From a virus (taxonomy: Duplodnaviria > Heunggongvirae > Uroviricota > Caudoviricetes): DNA of 64,000 bases. This document shows positions 3,230 to 53,375 of this stretch, one piece after another. The number at the start of each line of letters is the position of its first letter. The first letter of the stretch is position 1. Both the position numbers and the translations under genes were made by a program. The notes under the pieces are model-generated. The model had not been told where the DNA came from, ran no database searches, and saw nothing but the letters and a program-made list of their open reading frames with translations. The stretch is taken from IMG/VR virus record IMGVR_UViG_2875713109_000001, one strand, 5' to 3'.

Positions 3230-3751
3230 TTATTTCTTTTCTGGACAAGTAGCATTTGGCTGAATTCGAGTTTCATTATCTTTAGTTGAAATAAGCACAG
3301 CAAGCCCCGTTGTAAACTGGCATGCTTTACCAACTTGAGTTGAAGTGAACACCTTAGTTCCTTCTTTATAAGTCAGTGAAACACCTTCAACAATTGTTTT
3401 ATCACTAACCAAAGAACCAGCCGCTGCACCAAGAGCCGCACCACCAGTACCGCCAGCTACAGCACCCAGTGTCGATGTGCCTTTAACATTATAACCGGCA
3501 ACGCCCCCAGCAACAGCTCCCAGTACCGCACCAAATGTCTGTGCCGCTTCTTTATTAGCTTTATTATCAACTTTCACTTTAGCTGGAAGCACAGAGATAA
3601 TATTGACTGTCTTTGTTTCCTGCTTCGAATTCAATTGAGCGGTATCATAAACATCGGCAGCATAATCAGCACCGCTAGATTGACACCCAGAAAGAAGAAT
3701 TGCAGATACAACAAGAGCGCATAAAGTATACTTTTTAGACATAAGAATCAT
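3230..3751 (-). CDS. lipoprotein with glycine-zipper segment
   Basis: Lipobox LLSGC after hydrophobic N-terminus; Gly/Ala-rich stretch GAVLGAVAGGVAGY...GAVAGGTGGAALGAAAG; alternative start at 3742. Confidence 0.55.
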   Translation of the reverse strand: MILMSKKYTLCALVVSAILLSGCQSSGADYAADVYDTAQLNSKQETKTVNIISVLPAKVKVDNKANKEAAQTFGAVLGAVAGGVAGYNVKGTSTLGAVAGGTGGAALGAAAGSLVSDKTIVEGVSLTYKEGTKVFTSTQVGKACQFTTGLAVLISTKDNETRIQPNATCPEKK

Positions 3752-4049: not shown

Positions 4050-4199
4050 GTATTTTTAAGTCGCGAATGCTATCTTTTCGCATCATATTGACCTTTTAAT
4101 CGTTCAGGCTTATAGTTTCGCCGTCGTAGCAAATTCTGCGACCAGGTTTGACAGCCTGAATGATTGTGCGGACAACCGCAGATTTCCGATATTGCGGTA

Positions 4200-4295
4200 T
4201 TTTTGTGTCCGTTAAACCGCGTTACGCCCAAATTATGGTGGGGCGTGATGGGGAGGCTTCGGCCTGCTGGTTTCACAATCGCCAGTCTGTCAACC
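4200..4295 (+). ncRNA. c4: candidate c4-type antisense RNA (boundaries approximate)
   Basis: Between operator and icd; contains cacaatc complementary to gattgtg repeated at 4162-4168 and at 4346-4352 overlapping the icd Shine-Dalgarno; GC hairpin ggcttcggcc. Confidence 0.35.
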
Positions 4296-4363
4296 CTGTC
4301 ACGTCCTGCCACCTGTTTGACAGCGGGTAGCAGGTTGTTAAACCTGATTGTGAGGCCGTAACT

Positions 4364-4585
4364 ATGGTTAATGCCAATCCTTGCGCACGCCCAGAATTCA
4401 TCTGGCGTTTCTATTCCTGTAAAAAACACCACTATCACTTCGTTATCGCAGCAACTGAAGACGAAGCACGCTCTCAATTGCCTGATGGCCCCTGCATTTT
4501 TACTGCCCGTTTTTCAACTAACTCGCGCAATTCACTTAGTTACTGGAGCCTCCCCTTCTCTGCCGACGTTCAGGGGGGTTTATGA
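4364..4585 (+). CDS. icd: Icd-like cell-division interference protein
   Basis: 73-aa ORF, ATG with SD tgagg 8 nt upstream; stop overlaps ant start (ATGA); position between c4-like region and ant as in P1 immI. Confidence 0.65.
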   Translation: MVNANPCARPEFIWRFYSCKKHHYHFVIAATEDEARSQLPDGPCIFTARFSTNSRNSLSYWSLPFSADVQGGL

Positions 4586-5616
4586 AAACACCTCTCGTCA
4601 CCCGTAATGAAATAGCCGAAGCGATCGCCTTGCATACTGCCTGTATGCCGACACGGGAGATCCCCGGCGCAATTGCTAACTATTTCATGATAACCAGACG
4701 TTTTTATACCCGAACAGATAAGGCTGTGATCAACAGGCTACTGATAGCCGAGATCAGGGATTATTTGATTGAACAAGGACGTCTACGTTACGCAACAGTG
4801 GCAGCAGAAATGAGAAAGGAGGCACATAGAATGACCGGTAATAATTTAAATGTTGAAAAACCAGCACCTGTTGCTTCAGCTACGCCAGCACCAGCCCTGA
4901 ATGTCATCCCCAACACCGGAGACACAATCGACAGCCAAACATTGTTGAAGATGGTCAATGAGGCACGGAAATTATGTAGCGAAAAACCAGTTCGCAACAA
5001 TGATTTCATTGCCAGAGTTAAGGATGAGCTTGAAGGAGAAACCTACGAAATTTTCGTAGGTCAAAAAAACGGCGCAGAAATAGATATTATAACCATGACC
5101 TACAAACAAGCCCTGCGAGTTGCCGCGCGCGAGTCAAAAGCGGTCCGCCGTTCGCTGATCGACAAACTGGAAGAATTGCAGCAGGCAAACTCCCCTACCC
5201 CATCGATCCCCCAAACATTACCAGAAGCTCTACGCCTGGCTGCCGAGTTGGCAGAACAGAAAATGCAGTTGGAACAACAGCTGGTGGCCGCAGCCCCTAA
5301 AGTCGATTTTGCCGACCGGGTATCAGTGGCCAATGGAATCCTGATCGGGAACTTTGCAAAGGTCGTTGGACTTAAGCAAAACGCCCTTTTCTCATGGTTG
5401 CGCCAGAACGGCATTCTCATGGCTTTTGGTGCGCGCAAAAACGTACCGCGCCAACAGTACATCAACGCCGGGTATTTCACAGTGAAAGAAGTGGTGCTGG
5501 ATGATGAAAATGGCTACCAGATACGGCTGACGCCCCAATTAACGGGTAAAGGCCAGCAGTGGTTAACTCGCAAGCTACTTGATGCTGGTTTGTTAAAACC
5601 AGTAGCAATAGGTTAA
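4582..5616 (+). CDS. ant: antirepressor Ant (in-frame internal Met could give an Ant2-like form)
   Basis: 344 aa; C-terminal domain near-identical to the 51376..52491 product and similar to KilA C-terminus; immI position upstream of kilA-repL. Confidence 0.7.
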   Translation: MKTPLVTRNEIAEAIALHTACMPTREIPGAIANYFMITRRFYTRTDKAVINRLLIAEIRDYLIEQGRLRYATVAAEMRKEAHRMTGNNLNVEKPAPVASATPAPALNVIPNTGDTIDSQTLLKMVNEARKLCSEKPVRNNDFIARVKDELEGETYEIFVGQKNGAEIDIITMTYKQALRVAARESKAVRRSLIDKLEELQQANSPTPSIPQTLPEALRLAAELAEQKMQLEQQLVAAAPKVDFADRVSVANGILIGNFAKVVGLKQNALFSWLRQNGILMAFGARKNVPRQQYINAGYFTVKEVVLDDENGYQIRLTPQLTGKGQQWLTRKLLDAGLLKPVAIG

Positions 5617-5780: not shown

Positions 5781-6581
5781 ATGCAACAAACATTCAATGC
5801 GGATATGAATATATCAAACCTTCATCAAAATGTCGATCCTTCAACCACTCTGCCTGTTATTTGTGGTGTTGAAATTACGACCGACCGCGCTGGCCGTTAC
5901 AACCTTAATGCTCTACACAGAGCGAGCGGACTCGGTGCCCATAAAGCGCCAGCTCAATGGCTAAGAACGCTGTCAGCCAAACAGCTCATTGAAGAGCTTG
6001 AAAAAGAAACTATGCAGAATTGCATAGTTTCGTTCGAAGGCCGTGGCGGCGGCACTTTTGCACATGAATTGCTCGCAGTGGAGTACGCAGGTTGGATTTC
6101 TCCCGCGTTTCGGCTGAAGGTAAACCAGACATTTATCGACTATCGAGCTGGAAGATTACAACCTGCTATTCCGCAGAGCCTCCCAGAAGCTCTCCGTTTG
6201 GCTGCTGACCTGGCAGAGCAAAAGCAACGGCTGGAGCAAAAAATGCTGATGGATGCACCTAAAGTCGAATTCGCCGAACGCGTTGCTACCGCCAGCGGGG
6301 TTCTAATCGGCAACTATGCCAAAGTGCTCGGCCTGGGCCAAAACTATCTCTTCACCTGGTTGCGTGATAACGGAATTCTGATCGCAACCGGTGAACGCAG
6401 GAACGTCCCCAAACAAGAATACATATCCCGTGGGTATTTCACCCTTAAAGAAACCGTGATCGATACAAGCAATGGAAGCAGGATTTCTTTCACGACTCGT
6501 ATAACCGGCAAAGGTCAGCAGTGGCTGATGAAGCGATTGCTTGATGCTGGTGTGCTGGTACCTGTCGCGGCAACGCGCTAA
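5781..6581 (+). CDS. kilA: KilA-like protein
   Basis: 266 aa; ATG with SD tggagaaaaa; C-terminal domain homologous to Ant C-terminus; directly precedes repL. Confidence 0.7.
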   Translation: MQQTFNADMNISNLHQNVDPSTTLPVICGVEITTDRAGRYNLNALHRASGLGAHKAPAQWLRTLSAKQLIEELEKETMQNCIVSFEGRGGGTFAHELLAVEYAGWISPAFRLKVNQTFIDYRAGRLQPAIPQSLPEALRLAADLAEQKQRLEQKMLMDAPKVEFAERVATASGVLIGNYAKVLGLGQNYLFTWLRDNGILIATGERRNVPKQEYISRGYFTLKETVIDTSNGSRISFTTRITGKGQQWLMKRLLDAGVLVPVAATR

Positions 6582-6610: not shown

Positions 6611-7456
6611 ATGCTGGCTAAAGTCACTTTCCTGAGCTGTATAACGATGAGCGATTTTACTTTTTCTGGCTATGAATTGGCTTGCTTTGTAACACACTCC
6701 GGTCTATCCCGTAGCGCCGGGCATATCCTGTCGCAATGTGCAAATCTCGCGGCAACAACCAGTGAATACTTCATTCACAAGCCTCACCGCTTGATCGCGG
6801 CAGAAACTGGTTATAGCCAATCAACCGTCGTTCGTGCATTCCGTGAAGCTGTAAACAAAGGAATCCTGTCTGTAGAGATTGTTATCGGCGATCACCGTGA
6901 ACGTCGCGCTAACCTGTACCGGTTTACACCATCCTTTTTGGCCTACGCACAACAAGCCAAAAATGCGCTGATTGAAAGCAAATTAAAGATCTCTTCAGCC
7001 GCAACCAAGGTTAAAGCTGTTCTCGCTAAGACATTGGCTTTATTTAATTTTTTATCCACACCCCCATGTCAAAATGATACCCCCTCCCCCTGTCAGGATG
7101 ACGTGGCAATAAAGAATAAGAAGTCACAAGTTAAAAAAACAAAAAGATCAGTTTCCGGCGGTGCCGGAACGACCAGACTCAAAAAATTGACTTCATGGAT
7201 CGCTGAGGCAAAAGCAAAGGCTGACAATCTGCGGTTATCCAAAAAACGCGCTCAAAAACATGAGTTCAAGCAGAAAGTAGAGGCGGCAGCGCGGAAATAT
7301 GCTTACCTGAAGAACAAGCGTTCTCCTGATATTGACGGGGTATCAAACTTCGATAATTTGCCGCATTGCATGACGGTAAACGAAGCTCTTAATGCGGTTT
7401 TAGCCAAAAATAAAGATAACGAACAATGGGGTATACCGGCAGGATTCAGAGGGTAA
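6611..7456 (+). CDS. repL: lytic replication protein RepL
   Basis: 281-aa ORF immediately downstream of kilA, matching the P1 kilA-repL lytic replicon arrangement. Confidence 0.7.
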   Translation: MLAKVTFLSCITMSDFTFSGYELACFVTHSGLSRSAGHILSQCANLAATTSEYFIHKPHRLIAAETGYSQSTVVRAFREAVNKGILSVEIVIGDHRERRANLYRFTPSFLAYAQQAKNALIESKLKISSAATKVKAVLAKTLALFNFLSTPPCQNDTPSPCQDDVAIKNKKSQVKKTKRSVSGGAGTTRLKKLTSWIAEAKAKADNLRLSKKRAQKHEFKQKVEAAARKYAYLKNKRSPDIDGVSNFDNLPHCMTVNEALNAVLAKNKDNEQWGIPAGFRG

Positions 7457-7624
7457 TGAATTGTTCTAATTATAACCATGCATACTTTCAACGCCTCTAG
7501 TTTGCCATGAGGCAAACTCATAGGCGTCCTGGTAAGAGGGCACTGTTGCCAAAACTGGACGTCCCATTATTGCAATTAATAAACAACTAACGGACAATTC
7601 TACCTAACAATAAGTGGAGTTAAC

Positions 7625-8329
7625 ATGTTGAACCGAAGAACATTTAATGTATTCTGCGATGAATCCTGTCACCTACTAAATGATCATAATAAAGTCATGG
7701 TATTGGGTGCGCTTTGGTGCCCTGGCACTATCACAAAAAAAATTGCTAGAGACATCAAGGAATTAAAATTAAAACACAATCTAAAACCTGATTTCGAAAT
7801 CAAGTGGACTAAAGTATCTGCGTCCAAGGTTGAATTTTACTTAGATGTCGTAGATTACTTCTTCAGCAACCCAGCATTGCGCTTTAGAGGTGTTGTTGTT
7901 CCTGATAAAGAGCAACTGGACCATGCTCGATTCCATCAAGATCATAATACTTTCTATTATAAGATGTTTTTTTATGTCTTAAAAAACATAATAGAAAGTA
8001 ACAACACATACAATATCTACCTAGATATAAAAGATACTTTAGGTATTGAAAAAATTGAGAAATTAAGAGGAGTTCTTCACAATGATCGCTATGATTACAA
8101 TCATGAGTCGATAAACAGAATTCAACATATACGATCTCATGAAGTGCAACAATTGCAGCTAACGGATCTTTTCATTGGTGCGTTAGGCTACGTTCATCGA
8201 GGAATGAATAGCAACGCGGGAAAAATCCAAGTCATAAACAGGATAAAATCACATACAAACAGGGATTTACTAAAAAGCACTCTTCCAACAGAAAGTAAAT
8301 TTAATATTTTCGTGTGGGAGGCTCGCTGA
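7625..8329 (+). CDS. DUF3800-like protein, accessory
   Basis: 234 aa; N-terminal FCDES and C-terminal LQLTDLFIGAL resemble DUF3800 signature; ATG with SD ggag; AT-rich coding DNA. Confidence 0.5.
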   Translation: MLNRRTFNVFCDESCHLLNDHNKVMVLGALWCPGTITKKIARDIKELKLKHNLKPDFEIKWTKVSASKVEFYLDVVDYFFSNPALRFRGVVVPDKEQLDHARFHQDHNTFYYKMFFYVLKNIIESNNTYNIYLDIKDTLGIEKIEKLRGVLHNDRYDYNHESINRIQHIRSHEVQQLQLTDLFIGALGYVHRGMNSNAGKIQVINRIKSHTNRDLLKSTLPTESKFNIFVWEAR

Positions 8330-8793
8330 TGCTTCAAATGCCAGATTTATTGTACTTCAATGGAAGTTGGCAAGAGTATATAGACGATGTATATTATGTT
8401 GTCAGAGAAGACATTTTAATCTCTAATATAACGTTTAAGGGTCTCCCTGTTCGGTTACGTTATTCACCGGAATATGATGGGAAAGAGTTCGGATTTTGGC
8501 ATTTAGTATCAGAGGGAAAAATAGAAGAAGAACGAATACCTGATCTTGAACGGTGTAAGCGGATCCGCTGGATCGCGCATATGATAAGGAATTATAACCA
8601 TTCCGATATATCATGTTGGTCTGAAAGACGAGGACCAACTGAAGAATGGGTAATCTGGAACGAGTGTGAAAACTACGTTGTTGTGCTATCCGCACGTAGA
8701 GACTATTGGCTTCTTAAAACAGCCTATGTTGTAACCTATAACAGTAAAATCAGAACACTCAAACAAAGCAGAAAAAGAGCGCTTGGGACATAA
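8329..8793 (+). CDS. hypothetical protein, translationally coupled partner of the DUF3800-like gene
   Basis: ATG overlaps upstream stop (TGATG), SD gggagg 7 nt upstream; contains RIRWIAH (R-x5-H) motif; alternative GTG start at 8314. Confidence 0.45.
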   Translation: MLQMPDLLYFNGSWQEYIDDVYYVVREDILISNITFKGLPVRLRYSPEYDGKEFGFWHLVSEGKIEEERIPDLERCKRIRWIAHMIRNYNHSDISCWSERRGPTEEWVIWNECENYVVVLSARRDYWLLKTAYVVTYNSKIRTLKQSRKRALGT

Positions 8794-8800
8794 AAAAGCT

Positions 8801-8832
8801 GAACCCGACACATATTGCTATGTATCGGGTTC
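8801..8832. terminator. hairpin closing the 7625..8793 module
   Basis: aacccga / tcgggtt stem read directly; weak T tract. Confidence 0.35.
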
Positions 8833-8959
8833 GATCGCTCTTTCTACACATGGTAGATGAGTAAGGCAAATCTAACCGATCTACTTTAGCTTTTCAATAG
8901 CTAGCTATAACTTTCCGCACATATTCTTCTGATAATTCCAGTATGGCTGTTGGGTTTTC

Positions 8960-9256
8960 TTATGCTTTTCTGCGCAGAGGTGCACATTTATTCAGCAACA
9001 ATAAATGTAATTCTTTGTTATTCCTAAGTATTTCGACACACCAATATCGTAACGTGTTCACTTCAAGTGTAGCCAGCACCTTATGTCGAAGTCCTCCCTC
9101 CCCTGCACATAACGATGACTGACATTCTGCTAAGGCACATAACCATGTATTGGCATCATAGAGAATCCAATAATGCTCCTCTGAAATAGTTTTGCATCCA
9201 ATTATTTCGAATCTTCGTTCTATCGTTTCAGGAGAGTATGAAAAATCAATTTCCAT
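8960..9256 (-). CDS. hypothetical protein, last gene of tail operon
   Basis: 98-aa ORF, ATG start, AT-rich. Confidence 0.35.
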   Translation of the reverse strand: MEIDFSYSPETIERRFEIIGCKTISEEHYWILYDANTWLCALAECQSSLCAGEGGLRHKVLATLEVNTLRYWCVEILRNNKELHLLLLNKCAPLRRKA

Positions 9257-9340
9257 AATATGCTCAAAATTTCGCTATACCAGCATAATTTAAGCACAAA
9301 AAAAGCTCCCGCAGGAGCTTTAAAATACAAGGGATGACTC

Positions 9341-50818: not shown

Positions 50819-50950
50819 TGTTTTTTGACTGCCGATGTTACATTGAACCTGACCTCTTGCGCCTTGAGGCATTTTCGGTTTATGCTTATCAGGCACCTCA
50901 TTAAAACGGGTGCCGGGATTGGAACCCCGGATAATGCAAAAGGCGACACA

Positions 50951-50972
50951 GACGCCAAAAGCGTCTTTTTTT
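50951..50972 (+). terminator. terminator-like hairpin inside the module 2 leader
   Basis: gacgc-caaaa-gcgtc followed by ttttttt. Confidence 0.45.
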
Positions 50973-50989: not shown

Positions 50990-51100
50990 AGCCATACGTA
51001 GCACATAGCTCCGAGATCAATGGTAGTGCTGGCTGGGCTGCCGAAAGGCAGGCCGGTTCCCTTTTGCGCCGGTAGTTCCAACCCAGTCAGTGCTACCGCC
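50990..51100 (+). ncRNA. candidate c4-type antisense RNA of second module (boundaries approximate)
   Basis: Contains gttccaa and cccttttg complementary to ttggaac and caaaagg, which occur both upstream (50912-50943) and overlapping the icd-like SD (51108-51149). Confidence 0.3.
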
Positions 51101-51157
51101 ATTGAGATTGGAACCTCACGCGGTAGCTCCTTAAGTTAGCAAAAGGAGGCTGCCATT

Positions 51158-52523: not shown

Positions 52524-53375
52524 TTATTGCGCGCTTTCGGGGTTGTCGTTTACTGGCTGCCCCTTCTTGGTTTTACGGCTGCGCGTAACTGATGCGGCTG
52601 ACTTAACCTTTTTCTCTTCGCGAGTGATGGCAATTTGTTTTTTTACATTTTCAATATCTGCCAGGCGATATATTTTTGCTTGTGGCCAGCGGTCGCAGAT
52701 GATCGGTTCTATGGAGTCATAAAGGCTAAATTTTGCTTTTTCGAATTCACCGTTGATGATGATTCCATCACGGAGAGTTTCATCGCAGATAAACACGCCA
52801 CACAGCGGTACATGGTAACTAACTGATTTACCATCATTGTAGTTAGGGCTACTGGAGATGTAGTGGACGCGCAGCATTGTTTCGCTAAAGCCGTGTACAC
52901 GCATACGGAATTTTTCATCCTCCGGGTACTGCCTCATTAGCTCTTTTGTTGCTTCCAGGTTCTCTATGTATTTCGCACTGTGCTCATTGATCCCCGCGCT
53001 TTTTTGGATGCGAATGTCCTTATCAATCAGATGAATAATGCGGCCAGCGGTCATGTTGACGCTGTTCACAGCTTCTGTCTGATAAGTTGTAACCTTGCGC
53101 ACACCGCGAAGGATGTTAGGCACTGGATATAAAATAGTCTTTGGGATATTGAGGTCTGGGTACTGTTCCAGTTCCCGCGCCATTAAAGTCCATTTATCAA
53201 TTTCAGCCTGAATGCTGTCAGTTTCTTTGAACGGTAGAACGACAACCGGGCGTACAGGACGACCGTCGCTGGCTGTATCAACGTGTTGGGCGCGTGCAAC
53301 AGCTTTTTTTAGAAAGAGATCCCTGAAGCTGACGAACTCCTGGTACAGTTGTTCGCCGTAGACATAATTTATCAT
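52524..53375 (-). CDS. c1: C1 repressor of lysis
   Basis: 283-aa ORF; strong SD ggaggag; position next to coi and loxP and surrounded by operator copies, as P1 immC. Confidence 0.8.
   Translation of the reverse strand: MINYVYGEQLYQEFVSFRDLFLKKAVARAQHVDTASDGRPVRPVVVLPFKETDSIQAEIDKWTLMARELEQYPDLNIPKTILYPVPNILRGVRKVTTYQTEAVNSVNMTAGRIIHLIDKDIRIQKSAGINEHSAKYIENLEATKELMRQYPEDEKFRMRVHGFSETMLRVHYISSSPNYNDGKSVSYHVPLCGVFICDETLRDGIIINGEFEKAKFSLYDSIEPIICDRWPQAKIYRLADIENVKKQIAITREEKKVKSAASVTRSRKTKKGQPVNDNPESAQ

Follow-up and report, generated by a model that had tools for sequence, protein, structure and literature searches.

The PrrC anticodon nuclease is encoded within the EcoprrI type I restriction locus, between hsdS and hsdR. 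The PADLOC preprint, which takes PrrC as the prototype of an embedded system, proposed 145 PDC systems as candidates because they are embedded in loci of BREX, DISARM or type I restriction (bioRxiv 10.1101/2024.01.29.577857). DUF3800 genes are known to associate with terminator-bearing structured RNAs, in either orientation (PMC5737381), and Rfam contains the families DUF3800-I to -XI (PMC11701678). In the record of phage P1, the genes rlfA and rlfB are labelled merely as 'possibly associated with lytic replication'. Here, we analysed the rlfA-rlfB pair in a 64,000-nucleotide (nt) stretch of the IMG/VR virus record IMGVR_UViG_2875713109_000001 (Caudoviricetes), hereafter the window, and we found that a conserved small RNA gene of about 70 nt lies directly 3′ of the pair, on the opposite strand. 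We consider the chances about even that RlfA, RlfB and this RNA form a self-contained mobile three-part module with a role in immunity or a toxin-antitoxin (TA)-like role.

The gene pair at 7625-8793 is the rlfA-rlfB pair of P1, carried on a P1-like phage-plasmid. Positions 7400-9000 have 100% identity with E. coli plasmids 92-99 kb in size and 97.1% with phages P1 and P7, and alignment to the P1 proteins gave one amino-acid (aa) change in RlfA and four in RlfB. The original prediction, made from the letters of this DNA, had taken the pair for something other than rlf in the position of P1 rlf; this part fell, since at that DNA identity to P1 the locus is rlfA-rlfB itself. The two genes are laid out as follows:

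7625-8329, plus strand: rlfA, 234 aa, DUF3800 protein with a predicted RNase H2-like fold
8329-8793, plus strand: rlfB, 154 aa, ATG at 8329, predicted alpha+beta fold, without a Pfam family

The TGATG stop/start overlap that had been described is present, in that the rlfA stop codon TGA (8327-8329) and the rlfB ATG have one base in common at 8329, with GGAGG placed 7 nt 5′ of the ATG. Three sequence motifs were located in the products, namely FCDESCH at RlfA 10-16, QLQLTDLFIGAL at RlfA 176-187 and RIRWIAH at RlfB 78-84.

We then compared the flanks of the pair in seven enterobacterial contexts with those in the window. The 62-68 nt right after the rlfB stop were 82-92% identical, against 63-75% for the coding sequences, and the following 100 nt were unrelated; no conserved non-coding sequence was found 5′ of rlfA across these contexts. 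The conserved block folds into two hairpins with a minimum free energy of -29.7 kcal/mol (z -6.1). Read on the minus strand it has 24 G:U pairs and 96.8% pairing, while the plus strand has 1 G:U pair and 87.4% pairing; where the plus strand would give A:C mismatches, the minus strand gives G:U pairs. The following features were placed on the minus strand:

8791-8863, minus strand: conserved small RNA gene of about 70 nt, convergent with rlfB, made up of a 5′ hairpin (8857-8843), a single-stranded linker, and a terminator hairpin with a U-run
8801-8832, minus strand: terminator stem-loop of the small RNA, 14 bp, from a terminator scan, with the T-run after the stem on the minus strand
8869-8897, minus strand: sigma-70 promoter of the small RNA, from a promoter scan, with -35 TTGAAA (8897-8892), a 17-nt spacer and -10 TAGATT (8874-8869)

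From the placement of TTGAAA and TAGATT, the RNA is predicted to start near 8862. In the P1 genome (NC_005856), the stretch 8791-8863 corresponds to about 52,906-52,977. Its U-run abuts the rlfB stop codon, and in Scandinavium it overlaps that stop. A hairpin closing the gene pair had been noticed before; the 14-bp stem at 8801-8832 is real, but it belongs to the minus-strand small-RNA gene, which had been missed.

From 13 enterobacterial sequences we made a covariance model, with which the window and 80 loci (1.22 Mb) were searched. The model matched the window at 99.6 bits, and a full-length minus-strand match was obtained directly 3′ of RlfB in 78 of the 78 loci with room for it (E 1e-28 to 6e-3), with essentially no matches elsewhere in the 1.22 Mb. 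A second, weaker match about 90 nt past the first (L024:10549-10599, L032:10543-10593 and L042:10553-10597) may be a tandem or degenerate duplicate. When 70 sequences were fitted to the covariance model, 98.1% of the cells were paired and 17 of the 19 pairs were compensatory (174 cells), a result equalled by none of 500 shuffles, while slid controls of the alignment gave 37-52% pairing. An independent MAFFT/RNAalifold run recovered the same helices, with compensatory changes in 12 of 18 pairs. Moreover, at constant spacing across phyla, 61 of 72 loci have the -35 TTG and 53 of 72 the -10 TANNNT, and the single-stranded segments are near-invariant (5′ CUCAUC, loop CCAUG, and linker GAAGGAGU, which is AAAGAGCG in enterics). 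A coding reading of the element was rejected on account of its hairpin lengths, which differ by non-multiples of three, and of the frequent compensatory changes. The predicted transcript thus has the characters of a structured non-coding RNA, with covarying helices, its own promoter and terminator, and no conserved reading frame.

We found no match for the small RNA in Rfam 15, including DUF3800-I to -XI, drum and skipping-rope, at E<=10 in the window and at E<=5 and E<=10 in nine related loci; the best sub-threshold match was ctRNA_pGA1, a model of plasmid countertranscripts, which reached 23.5 of the 45 bits required. The published P1 annotation has no RNA feature between rlfB and pmgF, and our literature search found no description of the small RNA and no function for DUF3800-linked RNAs.

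The first product had been called DUF3800-like, and RlfA indeed matches the Pfam family DUF3800 (PF12686) at 54.1 bits against a gathering cut-off of 21 (E 3.6e-14, profile positions 1-148 of 149). In an alignment of 53 homologues across phyla, with a mean identity of 60% and values down to 52%, the residues D12, E13, D134, D137, Q178 and D181 are invariant, and so are C15, H16 and C32. RlfA therefore carries the N-terminal DE and the C-terminal QxxD of the DUF3800 motifs (as given in PMC7736814). Its predicted structure has an RNase H2-like fold, in agreement with the RNase H-like inference made for DUF3800 proteins in retron and Cas12a2 loci (PMC7736814, PMC10910872), and, judged by secondary structure, the acidic residues of this model occupy the strand and helix positions expected for a putative DEDD site. 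No RNase_HII Pfam match was obtained for RlfA at E<=1, and a sequence-profile search for PDB relatives returned nothing significant. On the strength of its residues and model, RlfA is a candidate metal-dependent nuclease for RNA or RNA-containing duplexes.

RlfB has no family in Pfam or NCBIfam, and NCBIfam is also without a model for RlfA. The RlfB family comprises 1,856 clusters at 50% identity, nearly all of them stand-alone proteins of 150-190 aa. Among aligned homologues, F56, W57, H58, R69, R75, W81 and W97 are invariant. The RlfB model (predicted local distance difference test score, pLDDT, 92.3) combines alpha and beta elements, the latter forming an antiparallel sheet of four strands. 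Its RIRWIAH sequence had earlier been likened to the R-x5-H motif of HEPN RNases. The motif is there and R78 is conserved, but the position of His84 is H, W, A, F or P among homologues, no HEPN Pfam match was obtained at E<=1, and the model has a four-stranded sheet whereas HEPN domains are all-alpha; RlfB as a HEPN RNase was therefore rejected. The nearest solved folds, weakly, are those of RelE/ParE and colicin D/CDI (BECR-type) RNase toxins. Because Foldseek against the PDB gave nothing at E<=0.001, we take a RelE/colicin-D-like RNase fold as a lead and not as a result. The sequence-profile search of the PDB gave nothing significant for RlfB either. The names 'replication protein' (RefSeq, PHROG 16230) and 'oxidoreductase' (NCBI) given to RlfB find no support from its domains or fold. 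The conserved surface of RlfB is basic and aromatic, with invariant His, Arg and Trp residues, and judging from the model the protein may bind RNA, or may be an RNase or a specificity subunit.

We further studied where homologues of the pair occur outside P1. RlfB homologues were found in 194 species-representative genomes from many phyla, and an RlfA homologue lay directly 5′ of RlfB on the same strand, overlapping or abutting it, in all 78 evaluable loci. Among 116 immediate neighbours, 20 were HsdS and 10-13 were HsdR, and GmrSD, PLD, Mrr, TIR and KwaB were also represented; about 30% of the loci lie inside a type I restriction system, with hsdS on one side and hsdR on the other. Two alphaproteobacterial genomes have a DrmMI/type IIG-like methyltransferase joined in frame to an RlfA domain, and RlfB follows. 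This fusion protein of about 1,560 aa (Eco57I, N6_Mtase) ends in a C-terminal RlfA-type DUF3800 domain and is followed by RlfB and the RNA (L032:5280-9953 and L042:5228-9952, both from Alphaproteobacteria metagenome-assembled genomes); in the L042 fusion, Gly replaces the first catalytic Asp. Enterobacterial copies form islets, such as the one beside SymE in Klebsiella, or lie near smpB at the edge of a prophage. Most homologues are thus found on bacterial chromosomes and in restriction-modification loci, not in phages. The check with a defence predictor that the original prediction had called for gave PADLOC matches for both proteins (PDC-M04A, 1.2e-95; PDC-M04B, 2.5e-51).

Within P1-like elements the pair is accessory, as had been suspected, and not invariant backbone. 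rlfAB is carried by 8 of 19 phage records and by 98 of 433 plasmid records with repL, and 121 E. coli genomes have rlfAB against 517 with repL, so that about 23% of P1-like elements have the pair. Comparison of neighbourhoods showed that other cargo, or none, takes up the slot between repL and bplB elsewhere (L089-L091): RCS47 has an open reading frame of 198 aa there and 673R5 one of 171 aa, while the slot of phi456 is nearly empty. rlfAB was found to be non-essential in P1 by CRISPR interference and dispensable for plaque formation (PMC10695390), and rlfAB-pmgF had previously been listed as a low-GC variable region (PMC9603915, PMC6906374). In the window, repL (6611-7456) is the 5′ neighbour, and pmgF, bplB, pmgG and gene 21 follow on the 3′ side, all on the minus strand; pmgF (8960-9256) encodes 98 aa at 38% GC. 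The AT-richness noted before was confirmed, with a GC content of 35.0% for rlfA, 38.9% for rlfB and 36.6% for the pair, against 46.7% for the whole window, 45.2% for repL and 49.2% for bplB-pmgG. The pair is AT-rich yet not the extreme of the window, because 6.6% of equal-sized segments, and only these, are as AT-rich. Neither the 198-aa product of RCS47, the 171-aa product of 673R5 nor pmgF had a Pfam or PADLOC match, and therefore the label 'defence hotspot' for this slot is unsupported beyond its variability. The rlfAB module itself appears to be cargo and not replication machinery, its name 'replication-linked function' probably reflecting position only.

Two further elements upstream of rlfA bear on the control of the pair in P1:

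7460-7476, plus strand: C1 repressor operator (P1 Orlf/Op55), monovalent, 4 nt past the repL stop, from the P1 annotation and sequence comparison
7570-7598, plus strand: PrlfA, predicted sigma-70 promoter (TTGCAA ... GACAAT), transferred from the P1 record by alignment, the stretch being identical to P1

The operator differs from that of P1 by one substitution (ATTGCTCTAATTATAAC in P1, ATTGTTCTAATTATAAC here, the variant of this element also being written ATTGTTCTAAT). The change is C to T at position 5 of the conserved ATTGCTCTAAT core, and it could weaken repression of rlfAB in this element. Given that a C1 operator stands ahead of rlfA, the protein genes would be on mainly when repression lifts, and in early P1vir infection rlfA/B were reported to be induced together with repL (bioRxiv 10.64898/2025.12.28.696737).

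We propose the following mechanism for the three-part module. RlfA would be a DUF3800 enzyme of RNase H2-like type with a DE...D...QxxD acidic set, and RlfB a small partner whose synthesis is coupled to that of RlfA. The structured RNA of about 70 nt would be made convergently from its own promoter and end at the rlfB stop codon. The protein pair would bind this RNA, which would neutralise it in the manner of an antitoxin or else be a cofactor that it requires; nuclease activity would be set free once the RNA is lost or displaced, or in response to a phage cue. The likeliest role would be immunity towards incoming phages or mobile DNA, or a TA-like abortive response; in P1, the proteins would come on at derepression, with the RNA promoter independent. 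We favour one unit of two proteins and an RNA because of the 78/78 linkage, the conservation of the RNA above that of the proteins, its independent promoter, the RNase H-like RlfA, the basic and aromatic surface of RlfB, and the known association of DUF3800 with RNAs. A role in immunity or of TA type is preferred to one in replication because of the nesting in restriction loci, the patchy distribution, the low GC content and the dispensability of the pair. That the three parts make up an uncharacterised kind of ribonucleoprotein nuclease, in which the RNA is a cofactor, a guide-like component or an antitoxin for an RNase H-fold enzyme, is a more specific idea which we put forward only tentatively.

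Several observations weigh against the proposed module. When the 5′ half of the RNA was paired with the rlfAB mRNA, the best duplexes fell at various places, with no conserved site among them. The active-site geometry of RlfA is putative, being read from the placement of residues in the model. With a C1 operator before rlfA, the proteins may be repressed in lysogens, which would be awkward for a prophage-encoded defence; expression linked to derepression and early in P1vir infection fits poorly with a classic lysogen-protecting system; an offensive role, or exclusion while P1 grows lytically, would also be compatible with it. PDC-M04 is a candidate only, and no paper mentioning it was found; two other PDC candidates gave no protection in a native host (PMC12409345).

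The RNA also occurs without the proteins, which is a further point on the same side. In the reverse direction, an exact-pattern metagenome scan gave at least 120 loci, 13 of which were too short to judge. Among the metagenome matches listed, RlfB adjoins the RNA in 83 of 107 evaluable loci (77 convergent, 5 co-oriented upstream and 1 elsewhere in the locus), and 24 with enough flank, about 22%, have neither protein. These orphan copies stand next to integrases, a Y1 transposase, HsdS, Abi_2 or DUF3644; their neighbours are heterogeneous, and no recurrent partner family was seen beside them among the matches listed. About 53 complete E. coli chromosomes have an RNA copy that is 80-90% identical, with neither rlfAB nor the promoter. 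The copy is 45-60 nt away from the end of a satellite-like island; the island, inserted beside dinD or yqeG depending on the strain, contains Rha, AntA/B, Icd-like, DUF927 primase, SSB, ProQ/FinO and several large hypothetical proteins. Examples are L095-L098 (NZ_CP027587, NZ_CP070115, NZ_CP025328), at locus positions 3501-3570, and the IMG/VR loci L105 and L116. The orphan copies indicate that the RNA element is not strictly dependent on the proteins and can persist alone; they are possibly remnants, terminators or attachment-site-like sequences. As a separate observation, a co-oriented variant with the RNA 3′ of rlfB in the same direction was seen in five metagenome loci, L151, L165 and three others, two of the five being human gut contigs.

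The persistence of orphans keeps alive a reading in which the element is no partner of the proteins. The element would act as a terminator in both directions, or as a site at the boundaries of cassettes where single-stranded DNA recombines or integrates, and the system would consist of two proteins only. The promoterless copies at island ends and the metagenome orphans by integrases, Y1 transposase, HsdS and Abi_2 speak for this, folded single-stranded DNA also tolerates G:T pairs, and the hairpin would also serve P1 as the terminator of the pmgF operon on the minus strand. We nevertheless regard it as quite improbable, given the fixed-distance -35 and -10 in most loci across phyla, the U-run after the 3′ hairpin, the invariant single-stranded CUCAUC and GAAGGAGU, which exceed the needs of a terminator, and the linkage in 78 of 78 loci. 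Another explanation, unlikely but to be kept in view, is a selfish addiction module, in which a labile RNA restrains a stable nuclease pair and thereby stabilises the P1 plasmid or the islets, with no dedicated anti-phage role. The type I TA loci txpA/RatA and bsrG/SR4 have convergent antisense RNAs that overlap the 3′ end, an architecture like the present one; the nearest folds of RlfB, weak as the likeness is, are RNase toxins of TA systems, and isolated islets such as that beside SymE in Klebsiella would suit such a module. A pure antisense RNA, however, does not require sequence and structure conservation across phyla or the G:U asymmetry, the mRNA has no conserved target site, the embedding in restriction systems is strong, and P1 already has phd-doc (PMC9603915). 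Because many TA systems double as abortive-infection systems, this explanation overlaps with the module that we propose.

The remaining explanations place the function in the lytic cycle of P1. At derepression, RlfA and RlfB might break down nucleic acids of the host or of competitors, or host defence RNAs or RNA-DNA hybrids, and so aid lytic growth, as the C1 operator 5′ of rlfA and the early induction with repL in P1vir (bioRxiv 10.64898/2025.12.28.696737) would suggest; RNA-DNA hybrids are, moreover, substrates of RNase H-like enzymes. We give little credence to such an offensive function, since the homologues reside mostly on chromosomes and in restriction-modification loci, the pair is dispensable for plaques (PMC10695390) and missing from about 77% of P1-like elements, and the operator is substituted in this element. 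It is highly improbable that the pair is a true accessory of lytic replication, with RlfA processing an RNA primer or an R-loop at oriL inside repL. The location right after repL, the C1 control, the RNase H-like fold and the label 'replication protein' used by PHROGs and NCBI would agree with this; but such labels are positional only, the P1 note says no more than 'possibly associated', homologues without repL occur in many phyla, and 77% of repL-bearing elements are without the pair, which is non-essential (PMC10695390).

The gene pair and its candidate status were already in databases, whereas the RNA component, the fold lead for RlfB and the methyltransferase fusion appear to be new. P1 is a much-used phage in genetics, yet the label of rlfA and rlfB has been purely positional for twenty years. 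If the three parts do form such a ribonucleoprotein nuclease, P1 with its E. coli host would provide the first tractable model for asking why a dozen unrelated structured RNAs go with DUF3800 genes in bacteria and archaea, a question standing since 2017. The present findings turn a vague candidate into a defined, clonable 1.4-kb E. coli system and offer a direct route into the DUF3800-RNA association, and the two-gene definitions of candidates in defence-finder databases may overlook RNA components.

Other features were seen elsewhere in the window. Rfam matches at gathering level comprised C4 antisense RNAs at 4231-4316 and 51016-51103, and thus two C4-type immunity RNA loci, a c4 a1b1 target at 4110-4162, isrK at 50893-50971, and tRNAs at 25070-25142, 25148-25220 and 27028-27100. 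The Ant1-like (4582-5616) and KilA-like (5781-6581) products are similar in their C-terminal 130 aa or so (…PQSLPEALRLAA-LAEQK…GKGQQWL…). Between bplB and pmgF, the minus strand has a terminator-like hairpin at 9294-9321 whose likeness to the STnc130 3′ end is below threshold (28 bits against 55).

Finally, we compared the locus with known systems. It has the same genes as P1 rlfA-rlfB (rapA-rapB in P7), at 97% DNA identity, with neighbours and C1 operator position in common, and it differs by the 1 + 4 aa changes and the one operator substitution. With PDC-M04 of PADLOC it shares matches to both the A and B models, adjacent co-oriented genes overlapping by 1 nt, and an embedding in type I restriction-modification loci that was reproduced independently here; unlike our locus, PDC-M04 is defined as two proteins without an RNA gene (bioRxiv 10.1101/2024.01.29.577857), and the host of the present element is a phage-plasmid and not a restriction locus. 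PrrC resembles the rlfAB copies in restriction loci as an RNase-type module between hsdS and hsdR, whereas it is a single ABC-ATPase-nuclease protein that is not known to have an RNA partner, and it is without sequence or fold relation to rlfAB. A type III TA system of the ToxIN kind was considered and rejected, as there is a single convergent RNA unit 3′ of the genes and there are no tandem repeats upstream. In retron type VII and in the Cas12a2-linked TPR-DUF3800 proteins, a DUF3800 (RNase H-like) protein is likewise the putative effector of an RNA-containing defence (PMC7736814, PMC10910872), while the rlfAB locus is without reverse transcriptase, CRISPR array or TPR domain, and RlfA retains the Q of QxxD that the retron DUF3800 lacks. 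Like DUF3800-I to -XI, drum and skipping-rope (Weinberg 2017), the small RNA ends in a 3′ terminator and lies by a DUF3800 gene, on the opposite strand and outside a 5′ UTR (untranslated region) (PMC5737381); it differs from these RNAs in matching none of their models and in being tied to the RlfA+RlfB subfamily.

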